From positions 122,946,001 through 123,010,000 of the forward strand of contig OX597817.1 of assembly GCA_951406725.2 (NCBI GenBank): a stretch of DNA of 64,000 bases. Reading direction: 5' to 3'. The DNA is from Octopus vulgaris (lineage: Eukaryota). The notes beneath the pieces are model-generated. The model saw nothing but the letters and a program-made list of their open reading frames with translations, made no database searches and was not told the origin of the DNA. Positions 4,316-60,969 of the stretch are shown here, in pieces. How positions within the stretch are numbered: position 1 is the stretch's first letter; each line of letters begins with the position of its first letter. The translations under genes were made by a program, and so were the position numbers.

Positions 4316-4730
4316 TATTTTTTATTGCCCACAGGGGGCTAAACATAGAGGGGACAAACAAGGACAGACAAAAGGATTAAGTCGATTACATCGACCCCAG
4401 TGCGTAACTGGTACTTATTTAATCGACCCCGAAAGGATGAAAGGCAAAGTCGACCTCGGCGGAATTTGAACTCAGAACGTAGCGGCAGGCGAAATACCTA
4501 TTTCCTTACTACCCACAAGGGGCTAAACACAGAGAGGACAAACAAGGACAAACAGATTAAGTCGATTACATCGACCCCAGTTCGTAACTGGTACTTAATT
4601 TATCGACCCCGAAAGGATGAAAGGCAAAGTCGACCTCAGCGGAATTTGAACTCAGAACGTAACGGCAGACGAAATACGGCTACGCATTTCGCCCAGCGTG
4701 CTAACGATACTGCCAGCTCGCCACCCTTAG
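4316..4730 (-). mobile_element. SINE family A dimer with 14-bp TSD
   Basis: Two ~180-bp units; ACAGTCACATTATA at 4302-4315 and 4731-4744. Confidence 0.9.
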
Positions 4731-5365: not shown

Positions 5366-5950
5366 AGGTCGGCGAGCTGGCAAAATCGTTAGCACGCCGG
5401 GCGAAATGCGTAGCCGTGTTTCGTCTGCCGTTACGTTCTGAGTTCAAATTCCGCCGAGGTCGACTTTGCCTTTCATCCTTTCGGGGTCGATAAATTAAAT
5501 ACTAGTTACGCACTGGGGTCGATATAATAAACTTAATCCGTTTGTCTATCCTTGTTTGTCCTCTCTGTGCTTAGCCCCTTGTGGATAGTAAAGAAATAGG
5601 TATTTCGTCTGCTGCTACGTTCTGAGTTCAAATTCCGCCGAGGTCGACTTTACCTTTCATCCTTTCGGGGTCGCTAAATTAAGTACCAGTTACGCAGTGA
5701 GGTCGATATACTTGACTTAATCCGTTTGTCTGTCCTTGTTTGTCCTCTCTGTGTTTAGCTCCTTGTGGGTAGTAAATAAATAGGTATTTCTTCTGTCTTT
5801 ACGTTCTGTGTTCAAATTCTGCTGGGGTCGACTTTGCCTTTCATCTTTTCGGGATCGATAAATTAAGTACCAGTTGCGTACTGGGGTCGATCTAATCCCC
5901 TGGCCTCTCCTCCCCCCAAATTTCGGGCCTTATGCCTAGTGTAGAAAAGA
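5366..5950 (+). mobile_element. SINE family A trimer
   Basis: One tRNA head followed by three bodies; units 1-2 end in tail type 1, unit 3 in tail type 2 (CCCCAAATTTCGGGCCTT.TGCCTAG). Confidence 0.9.
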
Positions 5951-8990: not shown

Positions 8991-9503
8991 TTGTCCTGGA
9001 ACCTACCCCCTCCTCCATCCCCCTTCCCCCATGCACCCTCCACGGACCCACACACACCCCACCCTGACTTCCCTACGTCTACCCCATCTTCACCCAACCA
9101 TTCCAACTCTCCTCCCCACACCTCTGCACTCCCTCTTCCTGACCCCCACTCATCCCACCACCCTGCTCTCTCGCACTGTTGTCACTATACCCCCCAATCT
9201 CCCCCTCTCCGCTGCCGAGCGCTCTCTCCTTAGTAAGGGTCTCCGCTTCACGCCTCTCACGCGCCACTGCGACGAATTTGAGTATTTTCCATTCAAAATG
9301 TGACCGCGTGTGTACCGTTGGCGATTTTTTTCCTCTGTCTTTCTTCCTTTTCTGGATCTTTCCTTCTCCTATGTTTCCGACGAAGAGCTCGGCTCAAAAC
9401 GTTAAACCCTCCTTCTTTCCTGAGCGTCCAATAATACTATATTTGTTCCACGTCCTCGCGTTGTTGTGTTTTTCCGTGCTTTCATGTTTGGATTAACTTT
9501 ATA
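8991..9503 (+). mobile_element. Internally deleted Penelope-like element
   Basis: TVVTIPPNLPLSAAERSLLSKGLRFTP resembles the Penelope ORF N-terminal LS..E..LL.KGL.F.P motif; joined directly to a terminal segment with a decayed hammerhead. Confidence 0.7.
9373..9407 (+). ncRNA. Decayed minimal type I hammerhead ribozyme motif
   Basis: GTTT-CCGACGA-A-GAGC-TCG-GCTC-AAAA-CG-TT-AAAC: stem I GTTT/AAAC, stem II GAGC/GCTC, palindromic ACGT stem III; two core deviations (U4 to C, G12 to A). Confidence 0.5.
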
Positions 9504-9543
9504 TAAAATCTGTTTTATATAAATAAGTAACCTGTGCGCATAC

Positions 9544-9650
9544 TCACAATTTTATGTGACAAGTTCGAAAAACGAATGAAAGCGCTAATAATGAATAAAT
9601 GAAATTTGTTTTCCAAAATTCTGGCGACCTCCTTTTTTCTGAATATATAC
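9544..9650 (+). repeat. Penelope-type terminal repeat with decayed minimal hammerhead
   Basis: TTAT-GTGACAA-GTTC..GAAT-GAAA-GCGC-TA-ATAA; inverted partner at 6882-6990. Confidence 0.65.
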
Positions 9651-9937
9651 GACACTCCTTGTTTGTTTTCGTCGGTTTCCTTCTATGTCTCCACTGTCAT
9701 ATCTTTGTTTTCAAATTTGATCCTTCATAAATCCTAAATTTTAGTTTGGAACTTATGGGAACAACTGTCTTTGAAGACTCATATTGTTGTTGAAGCCTCG
9801 AAATGAATATTTTTGATAAAATGAAAATTCCTTAACGGATTAATTCCGGTATAATTTTTATTTTTAAATGAAGAAGTGATGTTGTTGGTATGGCTACTTG
9901 GAACGCTATAAGCCTTACACTAAAAACTCTGTGATTA

Positions 9938-10516
9938 AGGCAGCGAGCTGGCAGAAACGTTAGCACGTCGGGCTAAATGCTTAGCAGTATTTCGTCTGTC
10001 GCTATGTTCTGAGTTTAAATTCCGCCGAGGTCGACTTTGCCTTTCATCCTTTCAGGGTCGATTAAATAAGTACCAGTTACACACTGGGTCGATATAATCG
10101 ACTTAATCCGTTTGTCTGTCCTTGTTTGTCCTCTCTGTGTGTAGCCCCTTGTGGGCAGTAAAGAAATAGGTATTTCGTCTGCCGCTACGTTCTGAGTTCA
10201 AATTCCGCCAAGGTCGACTTTGCCTTTCATCCTTTTGGAATCGATTAATTAAGTACCAGTTACGCACTGGGGTCGATATAATCGACTTAATCCGTTTGTC
10301 TGTCCTTGTTTGTCTCATCTGTGTTTAGCCCCTTCTGGGTAGTAAATAAATAGGTATTTCGTCTGCTTTTACGTTCTGTGTTCAAATTCCGCCGATGCCA
10401 ACTTTACCTTTCATCCTTTTGGAGTCGATAAATTAAGTACCAGGTGCGTACTGGTGTCTATCTAATCAACTGGCCCCACCCCAAATTTTTGACCTTGTCC
10501 CTGAAGTAGAAAGGAA
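9938..10516 (+). mobile_element. SINE family A trimer
   Basis: Same head + tail1 + tail1 + tail2 architecture as 5366-5950. Confidence 0.9.
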
Positions 10517-10524
10517 TAATAACT

Positions 10525-12199
10525 ATGCGATCGCTGCTATTTTTAGCACGCTAAACAAGATAGTTTTTAACTGAAAAAGAACATCTAGCAGCAAAGGCAC
10601 ACCGGCAGAATCAGATAAAACCAGGGCAAAGCGACTGTAACAGATGCCTGAATATGCACGGAGACGTAGACATGATTCTGTTTCCGCTACAAATGACCGA
10701 CTGGTTACGGTATCTCGAGAGAATATTCTACTTCAAAATAACGGTGTCAGATCACAAATTGTGTATTGTTGATGCAACACTAAAGAGATCTTTTCTTTGC
10801 GATCATGTGGAAGTAGTGAAATTGACAAGCAATCTATGACTTTTTACAGAACGTCATTCTGATGAAAGAGAGTTTGCTAATTACCTTCTTGATGAAGGAA
10901 ATGGTAACATTTCTACTGAAAAAAACCTGGGTGAATTCAAAATCAAACTACCCAATGACCCTTGCCTTGAAAGAGGTACTCTTTCTGATCTATGTGATTT
11001 TGTATATGCTGACCTCAAAAATAACTTCACAAACCTTGTCTGGCTTGCAAATAGAAGTATCGTGACTCCAACAAATGAAGCAGCACAATATATTAATGAT
11101 TTTTCTGTTGACCACGAGTCCTGGTGAGCTAAGCATATACAGAAACTCTGATACCGTTGGTAATGAAACTCTGTACCCAGTCGAGTTCATCAACAAACCT
11201 ACACCATCAGGGTTTCCACCACACGTTGTCAAACTGAAAATATAAAAATATAAAAAATAGAAAATAGAAAACGATGCATAATGCTTCTGAGTGGACATGA
11301 TAATGTTATTGAGGCTAAGCTTGCTTCTGGTCCTTATGCAGGATCAACTCTGCTAATCCAAAGAATATTACATTTATCTCAAGAAATGGAATTTCCATTT
11401 CTATTTACACGCAAAAAATTTGCCGTCAAGCCAGCTTTTGCCTTAACGTACAACAAGGCACAGGGACAGACTTTTGAACAAAGTGGAATATATAATATCT
11501 TTCGACACAATTTTTCTCACATGGTCAGCTGTATGCCGCATTATCTAGAGTTCAAAGGCTAATGTAAAAATATTGGCTGAGAGAAATGAAAACAGCATGA
11601 TTACTGACAACTGTGTCTACAATGAGATACAATTTTAAAGCAAAATATGTTTTTTTTAACAAGTTTCAGTAAATAGAATTAACGCATAAATTATATGTAA
11701 AACAGCATATATTTGTGTGGAATTAAATTGTTTTTACATATTTCAACATATGCCGAATGAATGATATCGTTATATTAGATCATTTTAAATTTGGGTATAT
11801 TTGAAAAAGTAAGGAAATGTCATTCCCATGAATTTTCACAGCACCAGTCTTTTTTGTGTGAGTGTTTGTGTATGTATGTATGTATGTATGTATGTATGTA
11901 TGTATGTATGTATGTATGTATGTATGTATGTATGTATCTATCTATCTATCTATCTATGCATAACTATGTAAGTTCTACCAATTATTAATGATAAATATAT
12001 ATAACAGATTGACTCTTTAAAAAAGAGAGGTTATGACTGATAAAATAATGAAAGCAATATTTACTAAGCGAGTGAGCGCTATTATACAAAGAAATAATAG
12101 AACGTAAAATATCATAAAAATGATTAGATTTAGGCATCAATGTGGAAATATTATTGAGTGGCCAGCAGAAAACCACCCGGAGGGCGGTCTTTCTGCTAG
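10525..12199 (+). mobile_element. Helitron remnant with intact 3' terminus
   Basis: Pif1 helicase remnants inside; ends AGCAGAAAACCACCCGGAGGGCGGTCTTTCTGCTAG|T (hairpin plus CTAG followed by T). Confidence 0.85.
10760..11636 (+). pseudogene. Helitron Rep/Hel Pif1-family helicase C-terminal fragment
   Basis: VDATLKRSFL.DHVEVVKLTSN, FANYLLDEGNG, RSIVTPTNE, YPVEFIN..PSGFPPH, FPFLFTRKKFAVKPAFALTYNKAQGQT and FSHGQLYAALSRV across frameshifts. Confidence 0.92.
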
Positions 12200-12263: not shown

Positions 12264-12601
<338 letters not shown>

Positions 12602-18009: not shown

Positions 18010-18728
18010 TACCTTTCTCTTCTCTTTCCTCTGATTCTTTGGTCTAATCTTCCACAACCCTCCTATTTCTTTGTCTCGCTCTGCACTCACAGGTCGCTCT
18101 TCGACACCCATCCCTTCTCCTCTCTGATTCCTTCTTTCTCTCTCTTCTCGCTCTTTGTCGCGTTTGTCCCTCCTCTCTCTCTCTCCTCTCTCTCTCTCTT
18201 CCGTTGCTTCTCTTTCTTTTCTTTTCTCTCTTCTCTGTCACGTGACTGCTGGCCGAAATCTGCCTTTCAGCTTCTGACCAGCGTCGTGTTAACATCGTTG
18301 TTTTTCGTCCGCCGCTATAGGCATCGCCGATAAGGCTCCTTTCCTTGCGCCAGAGAAAAAATTTGTTTGCTTGTTATCAGTCGTAAGACACTTGTTGTTG
18401 TTTTCACCGTTAATGCTTCTGTATTTCATGTTTCTGTATTCCATTATTTTTTTGTTTTTTTTATATTCGTCCCTTTTGCTGTCCTGGTGTCCGTATGCAT
18501 TCGATCCTTCTTCCAGGAAATCTACGCTCCCAGCTTAGTTTTTCTAATGCTCGTTGCTTAGTTTTTCTTGGAGGGCTGGCCGTGATCTAGTAATCTCAAG
18601 ATTAATCAGCCGAAATTACTACGATGATCCGGTTCTTGACTGAAGACTGAGGGTTTCGAATGTCCTGTCCGTGTTTATTGTATCGTCTTCTAAGAGTTAT
18701 AGTTCTTGTCCATGTTGTATTTTTCTAC

Positions 18729-18736
<8 letters not shown>
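18010..18736 (+). mobile_element. Pyrimidine-rich element ending in (TA)n, probable Penelope-type terminal repeat
   Basis: T-rich body ending at (TA)n and containing a permuted hammerhead motif; family assignment is inferred. Confidence 0.5.
18588..18650 (+). ncRNA. Candidate non-circularly permuted hammerhead ribozyme
   Basis: TAGTAA-TC-TCAAGA / TTAA / TCAG-CC-GAAA-TTACTA / 12 nt / TCTTGA-CTGAAGA-CTGA; stems I and III 6 bp each, stem II 4 bp with a CC bulge. Confidence 0.55.
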
Positions 18737-18795
<59 letters not shown>

Positions 18796-18822: not shown

Positions 18823-19714
18823 CACGTGGTCTGATCAATGCGTATGACAACCCAAAGTAACGAAGCTAAAGCATGTAGAGTGATAACGCTGGGCACAAAT
18901 TGACCTTGAATTATACTGTGCATGCGCACTAAGTGTTAACGCTCTAGCTTACTTCCGCTGTTTACATCAGTATTTGGAAGGAAGATGTGTAGCGTGCGAT
19001 CGTCGCGTTGACCATGACAGAAAGTTGGGCAAAATGTCTTTTTTCCAAAAGCTTGGCGACACCTACTCAGAGGCCTACACACTGTTTTCAAAAGGTTTTC
19101 ATCGTTCTCGACATAAGGAGATCTTGTGCAACTGAAACCCGGGTGTCTTTTTGGTCAGCTGAATGCAGTTTTAGCACAAACTTGCCAGACACGCGTCTCA
19201 TACCCAGATCTTCAGTGAAAATGGTCTGAACTGAACCGTAACTAATCTGCATATCCTTTGATAACTCAAGGAAAGTGATTCGACGATTTCCCGTCACAAC
19301 TGCCCGCATATCTGCGATATTTTTCTCAGTTCTGCTGGTTGCGATGTTTTTCTTAGTGCTGCAGAGCATTCATCAATATCGAAACTTTTTCGGCCATCGT
19401 GGAAACATCTGACTCACTCGTACACTTTTGATGCGGCTCATACACTTTTCTCCATACACATTCTGCAATTTTGCGTAAGCCTCTGAGCAGGTATCGCCAC
19501 GATAACTTTCTCTGTCATGGTCAATGCGACAATCATACGCTACACTCGTTGCTTCCACGCACTGCTGTAAACAGTGGAAGGGAGCTAGGACGTTAAAACT
19601 TAGTGTGATTGCACAATAGAGTTCAAAGTCAATCTGTGCAAAGCGGCTTCCCTCTGTGTGCTTTAGCTTCGTTACTATGGAAACAGTTCTGATAGTTATT
19701 TATTAGACCTCGTA
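18823..19714 (-). mobile_element. Mariner derivative with ~250-bp inverted arms
   Basis: Ends C.CGTGGTCTGATCAA and TTATTAGACCTCGTA; arms ~18823-19080 and ~19474-19714. Confidence 0.85.
19081..19518 (-). pseudogene. Mariner transposase N-terminal HTH remnant
   Basis: GDTCSEAYAKLQNVYGEKCMSR..SRTEKNIADMRAVVTGNRRITFLELSKDMQISYGSVQTIFTEDLGMRRVSGKFVLKL (WVP-linker region). Confidence 0.88.
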
Positions 19715-33194: not shown

Positions 33195-34330
33195 TTGATT
33201 TTTGCTTTGCATTTGTACAAGTTGGCTCTAAATCTCACCCGAGACCTCAAGAAAAAACAAGTTAGAAGTTTATGTTAGTGTTATGCCTAGGGTGCCATAT
33301 ATTTGATTTTGTACATAGTGTTGTTCTAGAGAATGTTTAAGAAACCATAAAAAAATTATGTTTGTTTTAAAATTTGAGATTACATAGAAAGTATTTTGCG
33401 TAAGATATTGACAGTTCCCAAGAGTATTATCTTTTAATTCCTGCCAGTTTGGGGTTTCCTGGTATCTGAGCTAGGTAGCAATCAGCTCCTTTTGCTATCA
33501 TTCCCAGAACACCTATGACAACAGGTATTGTTTTAGTCTTCAGGTACAACATTTTGCTAATTTCTATTTCAAGATCTTTAAACTTGTTCAGTTATTGGTA
33601 GGTCTTGACAGATACGTTTATATCGATTGAGACAATCATATCAACGAGGAGGCATAATTTTTGCCTGAAGTCTTTCAATATAATGTCTGGCCTATTTGCA
33701 TCTATCTTTCTGTCAGTTTGAATGGTGAAGTTCCAGAGGAGTGAGATGTAATCAGTTTCAAGCACTGGAGGTGGTTTGTGTTCCCACCAGTTTTTATCAT
33801 GGGGCAAGTCCAGGTTTTTGTAAATTACCCAGTGAATATATTGTGCAGCTCTATCATGCCTGTTGAGATACTATGTAGGCGCAAGGAGACTGCACATTGA
33901 GACAACACGATCAAGGGTTTTATTTTGTTGTTGACATACATGACATGTTGGAAAGCTGCCGTTCTTTAATTTGTTAGCCTGCTGGTTTCTTGAAGGTAGG
34001 CATTGATCTCGGGGTGCTATGCTTAAATCTTCTATTTCAGATTTTAAGCCAGAAGCCATTAGCCATTGATGGGTAAGGGATTTGTCAACATCGGCATTAT
34101 TAAATCATCCATGTAAATGAGATGATTTGTATTTTTATCAAACATTTTATAACCATACTGTACATCATTGAGCAATTTTGAGAGTTATTAAGGCCAGACA
34201 AAAGAGGAGTAATGATAGTGAGTCACCCTGGAAAATGCCACATGAAATTCTTACATCTCCAGCATTTAGAGATCCATTGTCACTATTCAAAATCAGTGTG
34301 GTTCTCTATGATCTCATATTTACAGAATTT
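33192..34330 (-). pseudogene. Dong/R4-clade LINE remnant (RT piece, zinc knuckle, RLE, 3' UTR) between (ATT)n and (CTT)n/(ATT)n tracts
   Basis: GIFQGDSLSLLLFCLAL (34170-34330); LKSEIE..DQCL..CHVC..YLNRHD..IHW, LWNFTIQTDRKIDANRPDII..LVDM, TIPVVIGVLG. Confidence 0.9.
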
Positions 34331-35010: not shown

Positions 35011-35432
35011 CTCTAGTTTCAGCTCAGAGCTGTGGCCATGCTGATGCACCACCGTTTTGCTACGCTGTTATTACTAAAAGCCTCCTCTAGTATGTGGCAC
35101 TTGGTGAAGCATGGAGTTTGATATAGCTACCCTCATTTTCACCTCTTGCCGTGAGGTAGGTTCATCTGGGACTCTCGACAGGAAGAGGTCCAGCTTTGAT
35201 TTTAAAATCCCTACATCTGGTTTGTGCAAGTTCCTCAGACTCTTTGGGAGAATATTAAAAAGCTGTGGGCTCTTTAAACCCAGGCTGTTGCAGTAACTGG
35301 TCCTGAAGCCTGATGGCATTGCTGGGACCTTTGGCACTATGCAGTGTTGTCCCGTTCTGGCATTGGTGTAGCTTTCAATGTCAAAATTTGGCACAATTCC
35401 TTCCAGGATCTTCCAGATGTATATTACCGCAT
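35011..35432 (-). mobile_element. CR1-group LINE 3' end (ORF2 C-terminus plus tail)
   Basis: AVIYIWKILEGIVPN..GLKSPQLFNILPKSLRNL..KSKLDLFLSRVPDEP..SNS; the tail is shared with SINE B. Confidence 0.85.
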
Positions 35433-35744
35433 TTAAAGACGAAATAAAACGAAATAACACTTACGACAATATAAACACAAATACACCAAAAAACCTAACA
35501 TGTATAAAATCATCATTAAAAATTAAACTAAAATCAAATTAAAATATATATATAATACGCTTTCAACTTAATCCTTGTTTCTTAGTATAGATATATTATA
35601 AAATTTAAAACAAATTATAACGAAATTAGACCACTATAATGACAGAACATAATCATGATAAAGACAATTTTAAATCGTTTGTGGTTGGGCAGCGCTCATC
35701 CAGTACATTCATAATGTACGCTCCAAGGTTATTGTTATGTATAT

Positions 35745-50469: not shown

Positions 50470-50850
50470 ATGCATATATGGGTACAGGACACCAAAAAAA
50501 AAAACGTCGAACACAATGAGAAACAAAACCATAAATACAAAACCAAGGAAATGGACATTTTTCTTAAACAACGAAAAAATAGAGTACCGGACATACAAAA
50601 CAAGGAAAATTCCCCTTCTTCAGTCGCCTTTGTTTCATCTACTCCACGCATACATACATATATATATATGTATATAGATATGCATATGTAGGTACGGGAC
50701 GTCACAAAACGTGAACAACATCAAATACGAAAACAGAGTTGGGTACGCAGACAACGAGAGAAACAAATGGAAAACAAGACAAGCAACATAAAGAAAGACC
50801 CTTCATCAGTTGTCGGCTGTCCTTCTACCACTGATTTTGAGCATTCCCAA
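50470..50850 (-). mobile_element. Two truncated relatives of the 51.1-51.8 kb element in (TA)n
   Basis: Minus strand carries GGCGA-CTGAAGA-AGGGG (~50612-50628) and CCGACAA-CTGATGA-AGGGTC (~50797-50816). Confidence 0.7.
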
Positions 50851-50986: not shown

Positions 50987-51259
50987 GTGTGTGTGTGTAT
51001 ATATATATGTGTGTATGTATATATATGTGTATGTGTATATATATATATATATATATACATATATATACATACACACACATATATATATACATACATGTAT
51101 GTACATACATATATATGTATACATATATGCATATATGGGTATAGGACGTCACAAAATATAAGCATGAAATACGAAAACAACAGGAAATACAAAGGTAAAC
51201 TTGGGTATGCGAACAACAAAAGACACAAATGGAAAACAAGACAAGTAACATAAAGAAAG

Positions 51260-51323
51260 ACCCTTCATCAGTTGTCGGTTGTTCATCTATTCCCCATTTC
51301 GAGCAGTTAACGACAATACGAGG
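51260..51323 (-). ncRNA. Candidate non-circularly permuted hammerhead ribozyme
   Basis: CCTCG-TA-TTGTCG / TTAACT / GCTC-GAAA-TGGGG / 14 nt / CGACAA-CTGATGA-A-GGGT. Confidence 0.65.
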
Positions 51324-51643
51324 CTTCGAAAAACAGTTGCTTCCGCGAGATTTGCGGAGGGTCAAATTTGGTAACAAAAACAGGACAGCGGTGACATACA
51401 AGGAAACTGGACGAAAACAAACATGGAGAGTTGATAAACCAGACAAGGTAGATTAATGAACGCTGGAAAAATATTGTCTTTGACAACAGAAAAGATAGAA
51501 GAGAAGATAGATAGGAATACAGGAAGGAATGCTAAGGCTTCTGTTTGTTTTCACTGTCCTGTTTGTGTTACCTATTTTGACCCTCCACAAAACTCCCAAA
51601 TTTTATTTAATTTGCTTTGCGGGAGCAACTGTTTTATCGAAAG

Positions 51644-51708
51644 CGTATATTGTTGTTAAATGCTCGAAATACGAGACTAGAAAAACAGCCAACAACTGAG
51701 GAAGGGTC
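51644..51708 (+). ncRNA. Candidate non-circularly permuted hammerhead ribozyme
   Basis: CGTA-TA-TTGTTG / TTAAAT / GCTC-GAAA-TACG / 16 nt / CAACAA-CTGAGGA-A-GGGT. Confidence 0.65.
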
Positions 51709-52505
51709 TTTCTTTATGATGTTTGTATTGTTTTCTATTTGTGTCTTTCGTTGTTCCATGTACTCGTGCTTTGTATTTTTTGTTGTACGCGTTTCATGAC
51801 GTTCTGTGCCCACATATGCTTAAATATATATATATATATATATATCTTTATATATACGTATAGATGTAAGTATGTACATATATGTATGTATATATGCATA
51901 TAAATAATACATATTATTTATATTATTTGATTGAACGCCACGCCTTCATTTCCAGGTAAGTTTAATTATGTGTGTGTGTGTATGTGTGTGTGTGTGCATA
52001 TATATACATGTTCGTTTGAAGGTAAGACGGAGTCTTATACGTATGCCTGTATGTATACGTATAGCATTAGAGCAATGACATAGACTAATATTCATACTGA
52101 TTCATGTACGTGTGATTATTTCTTCTTTTCAGCTTTTCTAAATGAATTACAGGTCCAAACTATTCCAGTGGATGCGGCAGTTTACTTTCTGAACTTGCAA
52201 GTGTGCCAAGTTATAGGAGTCCAGTTTTTCTTGTTTGGACAACTTCTGTTGTGTAGAAATCACGATATTTGCAGTTTGTGTAAACACGGAGTAAAGAAGA
52301 AAATTGTGAATAATACGTAGACAAGTTAGTGAAATGATACAAGAGTTGTCAATTATTGACGCAGAATATATCTGTTTCAGTAGAAAACTTTATAATTGCT
52401 GTTTATGCACAGGTTTTCCATGATCGAATGGACTTCAGTTGAATGCTTTCCAGCTCTTAATAGATACATATCTGAAAGCCTGCATCATTTACCGTTGACC
52501 ATGTT

Positions 52506-52573
<68 letters not shown>

Positions 52574-53207
52574 GCGTATATATATATTTTATGATTACCC
52601 GTCATTCAAAGATGAGGATTCAGTTGTTCGTTCAAGCGAAACACCAAGCAAGTTTCATACAGATGCGCATCCTTATCCTAATTAAAAGTTAGAATCTGCG
52701 ACACAAAGTAACAAGACTGTCTCCATTAACTATGTAAGTCCTAATAATTAAATAAATAAATAAATAAATAACGAAATATGGTGCCTCTACGTGGTCACTC
52801 AGCCTGCTAGTAGTAGTTGTCAAATCTTTCGCAAGTCATAGTTTACCATCTTAAAAAAGGATTAGCATGTAAGATAATGTAGTCCTGAGTGGAGTGCTTG
52901 AAGAAAAAGAAAGGATAGCCATAGAATGCCTTAGCACTTTAACATTTAAACTGGTCATATCCGGTCCAGATATTCTACCTGTTTTATGTTCAACCAACCA
53001 GATCCAGCTTCTCACACCTATCCTTCAATGTCATTCTACAAATAAGCAACAACATCCTCAAAATCTCAAAGCTATGATTTAAATGTATAATTAATTGAAA
53101 ACTGTGTGATTAAATATGCATTACATTTGTAGAATAATCTGACTACTGAAGGGTTAAATTAACGATATAATCGATACTTCTGGTCGTGCTGATATTGCTG
53201 GCAAGCA

Positions 53208-53996
53208 TACCTATTTCTTTACTACCCATAAGGGGCTAAACACAGAGAAGACAAACGAGAGCGGACAAACGGATTAAGTCGATTATATCGACCCTAGTGC
53301 GTAACTGGTGCTTATTTAATCGACCCCGAAAGGATGAAAGCCAAAGTCGACCTCGGCGGAATTTGAACTCAGAACGTAGCGGCAGACAAAATACCTATTT
53401 CTTTACTACCCACAAGGGGCTAAACACAGAGAGGACAAACAAGGACGGACAAACAGATTAAGTCGATTATATCGACCCTAGTGCGTAACTGGTACTTATT
53501 TAATCGACCCCGAAAGGATGAAAGCCAAAGTCGACCTCGGCGGAATTTGAACTCAGAACGTAGCGGCAGACAAAATACCTATTTCTTTACTACCCACAAG
53601 GGGCTAAACACAGAGAGGACAAACAAGGACGGACAAACGGATTAAGTCGATTATATCGACCCCAGTGCGTAACTGGTACTTATTTAATCGACCCCGAAAG
53701 GATGAAAGCCAAAGTCGACCTCGGCGGAATTTGAACTCAGAACGTAGCGGCAGACAAAATACCTATTTCTTTACTAGCCACAAGGGGCTAAACACAGAGA
53801 GGACAAACAAGGACGGACAAACGGATTAAGTCGATTATATCGACCCCAGTGCGTAACTAGTACTTATTTAATCGACCCCGAAAGGATGAAAGCCAAAGTC
53901 GACCTCGGCGGAATTTGAACTCAGAATGTAACGTCAGACAAAATACCGCTAAGCATTTCGCCCGGCGTGCTAACGTTTCTGCCAGCACGCTGCCTT
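53208..53996 (-). mobile_element. SINE family A tetramer (184-bp period) with ~18-bp TSD
   Basis: Units start at 53208, 53392, 53576 and 53760; TTGC(T/C)GGCAAGCATACCT at 53195-53212 and 53998-54015. Confidence 0.93.
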
Positions 53997-59148: not shown

Positions 59149-59405
59149 AACAACAGAAATATCAATGACAATGTTTGCTGCGCCATAATAATTTGTTGTT
59201 TTAGCAACAGCAAGAAGAATGATAGCTTTCATAGTTGCTGCAACTGTTTCTACTGTTGTTGTCGTTTCCTTATTACAACTATTTAACCACAGATAAATTT
59301 CGTTCAAGTATACCTATGATGAAAACACTCCCTCTACGACCATTCCATCTTACTTTTAGTTAATAGAACCAAGTTCTTTTCTCAAATTCTATTCTTAGTT
59401 AAGTT

Positions 59406-59784
59406 GTTAATGCAATTTGAGAGAAATTTTTTTTTTCAGGTTGCAGCAATGGTGACGGTGGTAGGTCTCTTGATAATAGATCGTTATTGCTATAGAAGTA
59501 TACAAATTTTTCAACAAAGAGTCAAAGTAATACTGAAACAATTAATCGAAAAGTGCCTAAATCAAACTCAATGAATCCTCATAGAAAATGTAATGTGATT
59601 TTTGCGTAACTTAAATTTGCATAACTCCGAAACTTGACGCAGCAGATTTTACAAAATCCTTATACTGTGGGATTTTGTTGAAAAATTTGTATACTTCTAT
59701 AGCAATAACGATCTATTATCAAGAGATCTACCACCGTCACTATTGCTGCAACCTGAAAAAAAATTTCTCTCAAATTGTATTAAC
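59406..59784. repeat. High-identity inverted repeat, ~112-bp arms, 155-bp spacer
   Basis: 59406-59518 versus 59674-59784. Confidence 0.92.
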
Positions 59785-60969
59785 CATTTCTTTCGTTTCT
59801 GTTTAGAGCTTCTGCTCCCTGAGAAGCATTTTTGTTTTGCGAATCATTTGCACCTGTCCTTCTGTTCTACTTTATATTTACGAAGATTTTCCAGCTGTTG
59901 ATATATTCAGTATTATTGTTAAACCATTTCCCCCGACTATATTGGCTTGCTTCTAGTAAATTTATACACTTTTCTTATGTCTGATGGTATAATTTGATTT
60001 GTTCTTCCTCTCTTATTATTTGGGTGGGTTTTATGGTAGTTTAGTTTTTGTTATGAATTATTGAATTTCTGTCCATTTAAAAAATTATTTTTGCATTTGG
60101 CAGGGTATGGGTCGTCACCTTGTGATCATTTCTTGATCTGCCTTGTAAATTATTACGGAAGGAGTTATGGTCTTTTCTGTTATTAAGTTGTCCATTTTAA
60201 AGATTTTTATGTTTTTCTTTTAATTTTCTCTAATTTTGTTCATAATTAGCTTCATACTCTGGTAAACACAGATTTTTTGATTCTAGTATTTTATTTTATT
60301 TTGTATCTTCTCTTTCTATATCTCTTTTTTCCTTTAGATCTAATAATTTTTTATGTGTTTTTCCATTCGTTCTTTTGTGATTTCCTTCATCGTTATGGCG
60401 TCTCATTTTTCGAATTTGGTTTTGAATTTATGTACTCGAAATTGCAGAAGGGTGATTTCTGCTCCGAATTTTTTAAGTGTGATATTTATTCTGGCTTTAG
60501 TTTCCACATTTCGTTGAAACTTACGTGGGGAAACGAATTATTCGCTGTCCATTTTGTTTTTCTATATCTGCCGGCTTTTCGTTTCTGAGTGCCTTCCAGT
60601 ACGCTTGTTTTCTTTGATTTAATAATCTATTCAATATTTTAATCATATGGTTCCTCTTTTTGTACGCTTCTTTTTCCGCATGAATTTCATTCTATTCCTT
60701 AAACATCTTCTGTGCATTGGAGTGTTTTGTTGTTACTGCTATCGCAGTTGTATTCAGGGTTTCTATAGAACATGCCATGGTGTGTGCTTAAATGTCAATA
60801 AAGTTTCTACTTTGTACGTGCAAATATGGGTTTGTTCTTTCATTTCTCGAAATACTGATGTAAGGCGTATTTGTAAGAATCGTCAATTCACTGATATTTC
60901 TTCCAAAGGTCTTTCATTTACGCGCAGTTATGCTATTGATTTTGGTATTTTCTGTGCTATTCCGACCTT

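Follow-up and report, generated by a model that had tools for sequence, protein, structure and literature searches.

Natural hammerhead ribozymes have been dissected into three sequence blocks, S, G, and C, with cleavage demonstrated for the block orders SGC and CSG (Eckert et al. 2023, PMC10085705; statements about this and most other cited papers refer to their accessible sections). Because the blocks were assumed to be uninterruptible, six permutations were counted. In the SGC and CSG hammerheads, a helix joins the far ends of stems I and II, and type CSG was published from two metagenome sequences only. According to the same sections, no insertion longer than 1–2 nt is known beside CUGAnGA. 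A separate body of work concerns the Naiads (Craig et al. 2021, PMC8557442), which are Penelope-like elements (PLEs) often inserted in (TA)n, their listed target; the accessible passages report no canonical hammerhead and give no structure. Eight Naiads were flagged there as having, in the 3′ UTR, core halves “on either side” with 35–50 nt between them. The corresponding entries are labeled “HHR_core” and “HHR_half_core”, and the octopus and squid Naiads are half-core.

We analyzed a window of 64 kb (the whole stretch of Octopus vulgaris DNA) in which a permuted hammerhead had initially been annotated at 18588..18650. Judging from its sequence, the motif at 18.6 kb is most likely the 3′ ribozyme of a truncated PLE; we consider it quite probable that it is a split-C hammerhead module, that is, one in which block C is split, near the 3′ end (pseudo-LTR) of such an element in (TA)n (Table 1). 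The hammerhead core is complete, with C3–A9 at 18640–46, G12–A15.1 (GAAA) at 18612–15, and U16.1–H17 at 18594–95. Stem III (18588–93/18616–21) and stem I (18596–601/18634–39) are each 6-bp Watson–Crick helices closed at the core, and the triplet is A18593-U18594-C18595; in these points the initial annotation was entirely accurate, because its strands, its two stems in hammerhead register, and its AUC triplet were all found in place. The cut site that it placed after C18595 is retained as a prediction. The S-G-C order holds for S, G, and the stem I–CUGAnGA half of C.

The body of the element is a remnant without an open reading frame, whose 5′ limit is uncertain, with a dispersed repeat ending near 18011. 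Self-BLAST found no second copy in the window, and none of the 10 frames tested matched a GIY-YIG or RT Pfam family, the domains found at the N- and C-terminal ends, respectively, of a Naiad ORF. The (TA)n tract, at which the element had correctly been said to end, starts at 18735, 89 nt past A9, and the predicted cut lies ~140 nt before the (TA)n end; the tract is likely the insertion target. Insertion in (TA)n is a feature of Naiads that is also found in other PLE clades. Rfam returned 0 matches at E ≤ 10 for 18400–18730, so no hammerhead model fits this region. The Rfam scan of the whole window, which is rich in microsatellites, gave 246 matches, and among the matches listed, those of microsatellites to miRNA models dominate. 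An exact 22-base search of prokaryotic genomes gave 0 matches. A hairpin of ~8 bp at 18244–18285 has a loop that opens with a stem II–GAAA-like motif and closes in CUGA; 12 of 14 bases match 18575–88, and no stem I or III was seen by eye.

When both strands of the window were scanned with a descriptor covering all six block orders, two strict matches emerged (18640 and 51696), each of the order S-G-C, in agreement with the strand order that had been noted as common to the 18.6-kb and 51-kb elements. In window shuffles made in 1-kb blocks, stems I and III reached 6 bp or more, whatever the block order, in 1 of 3,742 locally shuffled windows, and a match as good as the 51696 copy occurred in 6 of 3,742.

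Stem II departs from every listed permutation. Its partner strand lies upstream of stem III, not 3′ of CUGAAGA: the pairing 18574–79/18606–11 comprises five Watson–Crick pairs and one G–U pair and has no CC bulge. The pair G10.1–C11.1, the loss of which had been named as the weak point of the motif, is present as G18574–C18611 by way of this upstream strand. The weak stem II is no longer a problem, because its partner strand sits upstream of stem III. G10.1 thus lies 72 nt upstream of A9, direct (or 1–2-base) continuity between A9 and G10.1 is absent, and A9 runs into a further helix, stem IV. Two more helices, hairpin V and helix X, accompany it, and all three were overlooked initially, so that the limits of the motif were drawn too narrowly; its real span is ~18497–18663. 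The chain order is IVa, hairpin V, IIa, Xa, IIIb, UC, Ib, linker, IIb, GAAA, IIIa, Xb, Ia, CUGAAGA, and IVb, and all helices and conserved core bases of the motif were computed from the sequence. The joints IV/V and V/II have zero unpaired bases, and the joint from A9 to IV has two. Helix X continues stem III and connects the 3′ end of the stem II strand with the 5′ end of the stem I strand; we model it as the stem I–II interaction helix, stacked on stem III. With helices IV, V, and X, the topology is different from plain S-G-C.

Unconstrained folding of 18490–18670 picked stem II, hairpin V, stem IV, and the IV extension unaided, with a z-score of −2.47 equaled by 4 of 200 shuffles. When the core was kept fixed and the flanks were shuffled, II, X, V, and IV occurred together in 1,508 of 490,366 shuffles at loose thresholds, and II ≥ 6, X ≥ 3, V ≥ 6, and IV ≥ 5 with flush joints in 33 of 310,508, the latter thresholds having been set after the structure was seen. 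A relaxed scan of the whole window for the split layout found exactly two sites, at 18.6 and 51.7 kb. In the longer nested fold, the probability was only 0.12–0.13 for helix X and 0.40 for stem III, and a competing fold exists; the ensemble holds nested pairs only, and stem I, a pseudoknot, falls outside the scoring.

Four other assignments were discarded: (i) an interaction helix of 18622–30 with 18651–58, whose 3′ bases pair in IV, and X fits the published geometry; (ii) a deletion of two or three bases 3′ of the core and (iii) a change of G10.1 to U in a 2-bp stem II, both given up after the upstream stem II partner turned up; and (iv) a degenerate type I motif starting from the second CUGA (18647), which has no stem I. 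The hairpin V loop contains a 23-nt tandem duplication (18526–18568), and the length of this loop also differs among the 51-kb copies. The stem IV/V strand 18505–18516 is also complementary to the CUGAAGA core region 18640–18653, a pairing that could serve as a core-hiding off state.

Table 1. Features of the split hammerhead motif at 18.6 kb, of the related copies elsewhere in the window, and of the Naiad consensus sequences (helix lengths in bp; Naiad rows read by eye from the accessible part of the Craig et al. 2021 supplement).
Feature	Position	Strand	Helices and pairing	Basis
18.6-kb repeat remnant, body (approximate, single-copy, ORF-less)	18010..18734	+		self-BLAST, ORF list, Pfam
Outer extension of stem IV, 5′ strand	18497..18504	+	pairs 18656–18663, 8 bp	unconstrained MFE; pair probabilities 0.88–1.0
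Stem IV, 5′ strand	18506..18510	+	pairs 18649–18653, 5 bp	MFE; probabilities 0.63–0.77
Hairpin V	18511..18573	+	10-bp base 18511–20/18564–73	MFE; probabilities 0.72–1.0; shuffle null
Stem II strand with G10.1 (G18574)	18574..18579	+	pairs 18606–18611, 6 bp	fold, scan
Helix X, 5′ strand	18580..18587	+	pairs 18626–18632, 3+4 bp, one bulge	MFE of 18580–18680
Block S: stem III strand, U16.1–C17, stem I strand	18588..18601	+		descriptor and fold
4-nt linker, stem I to stem II	18602..18605	+		letters read in place
Block G: GAAA between the stem II strand (last base C11.1, C18611) and the stem III strand	18606..18621	+		
4-nt bulge, helix X 3′ strand (18626–32), one unpaired U	18622..18633	+		fold
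CUGAAGA (C3–A9) with the preceding stem I strand, half of block C	18634..18646	+		letters and descriptor
Stem IV 3′ strand (18649–53) and that of its extension (18656–63), preceded by two unpaired bases	18647..18663	+		fold
(TA)n tract at the 3′ end of the 18.6-kb element	18735..18781	.		letters
Second family, best copy	51579..51708	+	IV 6, V 6 of 7 pairs, II 5, X 7, III 4, I 6	
Second family, inverted copy	51259..51363	−	IV 6, V 4, I 6, III 5; A at 10.1 (mismatch)	
Second family, 5′-truncated copy	50790..50845	−	CUGAUGA kept, GAAA gone	
Second family, 3′-truncated decayed copy	9719..9805	+	V 6 with other letters, stem II broken	
Naiad Anas (Acropora coral)			IV 7, V 6, II 6, X 10, III 10, I 6	
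Naiads Amil, Aacu (Acropora)			split layout; context too short to display IV and V	
Naiad, probably Naiad-2_Movir by position (box jellyfish)			IV 5, V 6, II 6, X 9, III 5, I 5	
Naiad, crustacean, Ppla or EuTe by position			IV 4, V 8, II 6, X 5, III 9, I 5	
Naiads Obim, Ovul (octopus)			IV 3, V 4+4, II 6, X 5, III 4, I 6	
Naiad Esco (squid), degenerate			II 4 of 5, three extra bases at V/II	

The layout recurs in a second repeat family at 51 kb, the copies of which also carry (TA)n at their ends. In the 51696 copy, stem IV follows directly after A9 and stem II has the G10.1–C11.1 pair. This copy fails the loose test of V ≥ 5, with an A–C mismatch leaving 2 contiguous pairs; at their observed sizes, its helices were found in 33 of 290,933 shuffles. 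One stem I pair differs between the 51-kb copies (U–A vs C–G, swapped in the inverted copy at 51271), which is one two-sided change. The inverted pair 51177–51388/51554–51786 has an identity of 73% by self-BLAST, and there is no such pair for the 18.6-kb element. The linker likeness that had been pointed out is real, with a spacer from cleavage site to GAAA of 16 nt in both families and a second linker of 12 vs 16 nt. That the helix sequences of the two families share nothing is true of stems I and III; in stem IV, by contrast, the strands are almost identical. The scores of aligning the 18.6-kb element with two of the second-family copies were matched by 0 of 300 and 8 of 300 shuffles, and those with the other two copies by 201 and 236 of 300, which is not significant; the profile of the 51-kb family had no match at 18.6 kb at E ≤ 10. 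The alignment is weak, and the two families are therefore probably distant relatives, not independent inventions. Rfam gave three weak matches in 51150–51815, none of them to a ribozyme. A third short remnant flanked by (TA)n lies at 50470–50650 on the minus strand, with CUGAAGA at 50623; it is truncated upstream of the core and is weakly matched by the 51-kb profile (E 0.009).

The published Naiad consensus sequences (Craig et al. 2021 supplement) were parsed by eye, without alignment or score. The supplement holds 62 CUGAUGA places, of which 51 are among those listed, and 19 are in the file of 54 Naiad elements. Eight of these 19 show the split layout near the 3′ end, two are clean type CSG, and nine were assigned to neither layout, most of them being coding sequence and two of doubtful reading. 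These counts are a floor, because other position-7 bases and line-broken matches fall outside the survey. To the eye, the joints A9/IV, IV/V, and V/II are flush in Anas, the probable Movir, the crustacean, and both octopus Naiads; the 18.6-kb motif has two unpaired bases between A9 and IV vs none in the other families. The fully parsed Naiads have a 6-bp stem II with G10.1–C11.1 and a hairpin V of 6–8 bp, their helix sequences differ across phyla, and the helix letters are fully exchanged across families. Clean type-CSG motifs are carried by two nematode Naiads (3_Nbra; Hcon or Hpol), whose stem II is of the ordinary kind and whose interaction helices measure 9–12 bp. No core was seen by eye near the 3′ ends of Naiad_Omin, Naiad_Adux, and Naiad-1_Skow in the accessible supplement. 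In the 3′ UTRs of Naiad-2_Dst and Naiad-3_Dst (Darwinula), S, G, and C stand in order, with S ~500 nt upstream and nested helices between. Like the window elements, Naiads have a (TA)n target and core halves far apart, and the inverted pair at 51 kb may correspond to their inverted 5′-truncated copies; the octopus consensus has no evident likeness to the window elements by eye.

On this evidence, we hold a split-C structure at 18.6 kb to be likely, and we model the class as a non-circular (SGC/CSG/GCS) cyclic hammerhead in which the chain opens between A9 and G10.1 and a four-way junction closes it. Folding would begin with the nested helices IV, V, X, and III, which would expose the loop of III; pairing of this loop with both flanks would then create two pseudoknots, stems I and II. 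In the four-way junction, the core stack (A9·G12) would meet IV, V, and II. Stem II would stack on the core, as it does in hammerheads generally, and IV would be stacked on V; such an arrangement would account for the flush joints. The RNA would be cut after C18595, leaving, according to hammerhead chemistry, a 2′,3′-cyclic phosphate and a 5′-OH. By analogy with the role proposed for PLE ribozymes (PMC4209133), cutting would free the element RNA from tandem or read-through transcripts. Across the cut, ~30 bp (II, III, X, and IV with its extension) are spanned vs 4–6 bp in canonical PLE type I ribozymes; therefore, the products should stay paired, favoring re-ligation. Paired products would favor circle ligation or end-to-end template presentation. 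We expect that members of the class probably cleave. For the 18.6-kb copy itself, the balance tips slightly toward inactivity, and it is possibly dead.

We regard as unlikely a reading in which the architecture is real and conserved and does not cut, serving instead as an RT-binding site or as a fold whose cleavage depends on a helper or a partner RNA. Such a reading agrees with the impaired in vitro cleavage caused by core insertions near C3 (PMC3088659), with the poor in vitro cleavage of metazoan PLE hammerheads (PMC4209133), and with the 1–2-nt limit on insertions next to CUGAnGA given above (PMC10085705). By contrast, the core bases and the U–H site are in register in every parsed family, and nematode Naiads hold type CSG, a cleaving form, at the same element position. 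Less probable still is a plain type SGC in which stem II follows CUGAAGA and the copy was damaged by a loss of two or three bases. Four consecutive Watson–Crick pairs are indeed present after the core, and the order, the short linker, and the spacing resemble published SGC alignments. However, the post-core helix, which had been annotated as a 4-bp stem II with a CC bulge, has a probability of 0.00 and a duplex energy of −2.0 kcal/mol, vs 0.47–0.58 and −8.3 kcal/mol for the upstream helix, and that annotation has to be given up. Moreover, the 51-kb family and the Naiads of coral, jellyfish, crustacean, and squid lack a good post-core stem II and all have the upstream partner. Chance arrangement in a repeat-rich, U-rich region can be dismissed almost completely: the rate for stems I and III alone would give ~10 chance matches per 2.5-Gb genome, and G–U pairs form readily in U-rich sequence, but the four further helices multiply this rate by 0.003 or less, and the recurrence of the layout at 51 kb and in published consensus sequences largely refutes it, as the initial annotation had held in calling the permuted layout common to repeat families.

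Several other features of the window were recorded. Tandem arrays of 180–184 bp at 4328–4677, 5419–5896, 9987–10471, and 53207–53947 belong to one SINE-like repeat, which we take to resemble an octopus repeat. A C-rich stretch at 8994–9830 contains a peptide at 9160–9288 that breaks off and is followed by a partial copy of the 51-kb family; the stretch is perhaps an internally deleted element. The peptide, which presumably resembles the start of canonical PLE ORFs more than that of Naiad ORFs, had no match in Pfam (longer frame), in the ESM Atlas, or in a protein search (68 candidates, 0 at E ≤ 0.01). At 12390–12480, a long perfect inverted repeat next to a (TA)n tract has CUGAUGA on both strands and one weak type I descriptor match. 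The minus strand at 59400–60960 contains an ORF-like, A-rich stretch, full of stops and with a terminal segment that is repeated, which is probably a decayed transposon; one frame on the opposite strand had no Pfam match. Fragments at 19050–19560 (−), 10840–11560 (+), 33500–33870 (−), and 35074–35460 (−), which look to us like a mariner transposase, a Helitron helicase, and two LINE RT ends, likewise had no Pfam match on their short frames.

In the literature covered (subscription journals and repeat databases excepted), only Eckert et al. 2023 was found for type SGC or type CSG, and no insertion “between A9 and G10.1” was found. For Naiads together with ribozymes, only Craig et al. 2021, a 2026 retrozyme preprint, and a fungal genome paper were found, in so far as their accessible sections go; the accessible main text of the preprint, its supplement aside, mentions neither SGC nor octopus nor cephalopod. 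The accessible sections of three reviews and of Forgia 2023 (PMC10162972, PMC6765202, PMC6155905, PMC6154101) contain no extra-helix variants. Weinberg et al. 2015 and Lunse 2017 may bear on novelty.

For the split form as a whole, we narrowly favor the broadest reading, namely, that it is a seventh natural topology: an active monomeric ribozyme with the CUGAnGA block split by a four-way junction at A9–G10.1, which would be the missing ribozyme of many Naiads (perhaps of other PLEs) from cnidarians to arthropods and cephalopods, would have arisen from CSG by re-permutation in tandem copies, and would circularize RNA through its clamped ends. If this is true, non-circular hammerheads are common in animal genomes and not a rarity of environmental RNA, and the hitherto unexplained “half-core” entries are explained by the split layout. 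The split motif, which is expected to be monomeric, would make the long-open role of PLE ribozymes testable, and A9–G10.1 would offer a new attachment point for ribozyme engineering.

The split form stands beside several known systems. The Weinberg 2015 form is reportedly a bacterial or metagenomic type I hammerhead with a hairpin on the GAAA side. Hammerhead variants “containing additional helices” are mentioned in the accessible text of PMC13725137 (2026), with Weinberg et al. 2015 among its sources, and those variants share with the 18.6-kb motif an extra helix in or next to the core. The non-LTR retrozyme consists of tandem 170–400-nt repeats with a type I hammerhead (PMC7229834); this assignment was ruled out at 18.6 kb, where there is no tandem array and the motif is not type I. 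The minimal type I hammerheads in the pseudo-LTRs of canonical PLEs (Cervera and de la Pena 2014, PMC4209133) resemble the 18.6-kb motif in lying near the element end, in the conserved G10.1–C11.1 pair, and in helix sequences that are highly variable between families. They belong to the circular class, have a vestigial stem III, and work as dimers, whereas the 18.6-kb motif has a full stem III and could act as a monomer. The joint A9–G10.1 is a known permissive one, because PLE hammerheads (PMC4209133) and SGC ribozymes (PMC10085705) both conserve an extra base between positions 9 and 10.1.

The closest relatives are the types SGC and CSG themselves. Type SGC (HRIMA-1 and the SGC variant, PMC10085705) agrees with the 18.6-kb motif in (i) the order of S, G, and the stem I strand with CUGAnGA; (ii) the short linker between stems I and II, which is alike rich in U and A in the alignment of the SGC variant; (iii) the helix that bridges stems I and II at their far ends, next to stem III, represented by helix X in both the 18.6-kb motif (3+4 bp) and the 51696 copy (7 bp); and (iv) two core pseudoknots. 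It differs in that, at 18.6 kb, block C is split, the G10.1 strand lies 5′ of all other hammerhead strands, and helices IV and V are added. Read against the published pattern, the motif fails the SGC RNAMotif descriptor, and both window families would escape the Eckert patterns because these need U at position 7 and G10.1 directly after the core. Because the continuity of block C, which is defining in every listed permutation, fails, the motif is not filed as type SGC, and the split form is outside the six permutations of Eckert et al. 2023. Type CSG shares with it the cyclic order and a stem II strand that passes via the interaction helix into block S. The CSG chain opens between stem III and the interaction helix and is continuous from A9 to G10.1, and the 18.6-kb motif is reversed on both counts. 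Because, apart from IV and V, the split-C form is a circular permutation of CSG, the tandem pseudo-LTR offers a route between the two forms, and the split form could have been derived from CSG via tandem duplication of the CSG unit.
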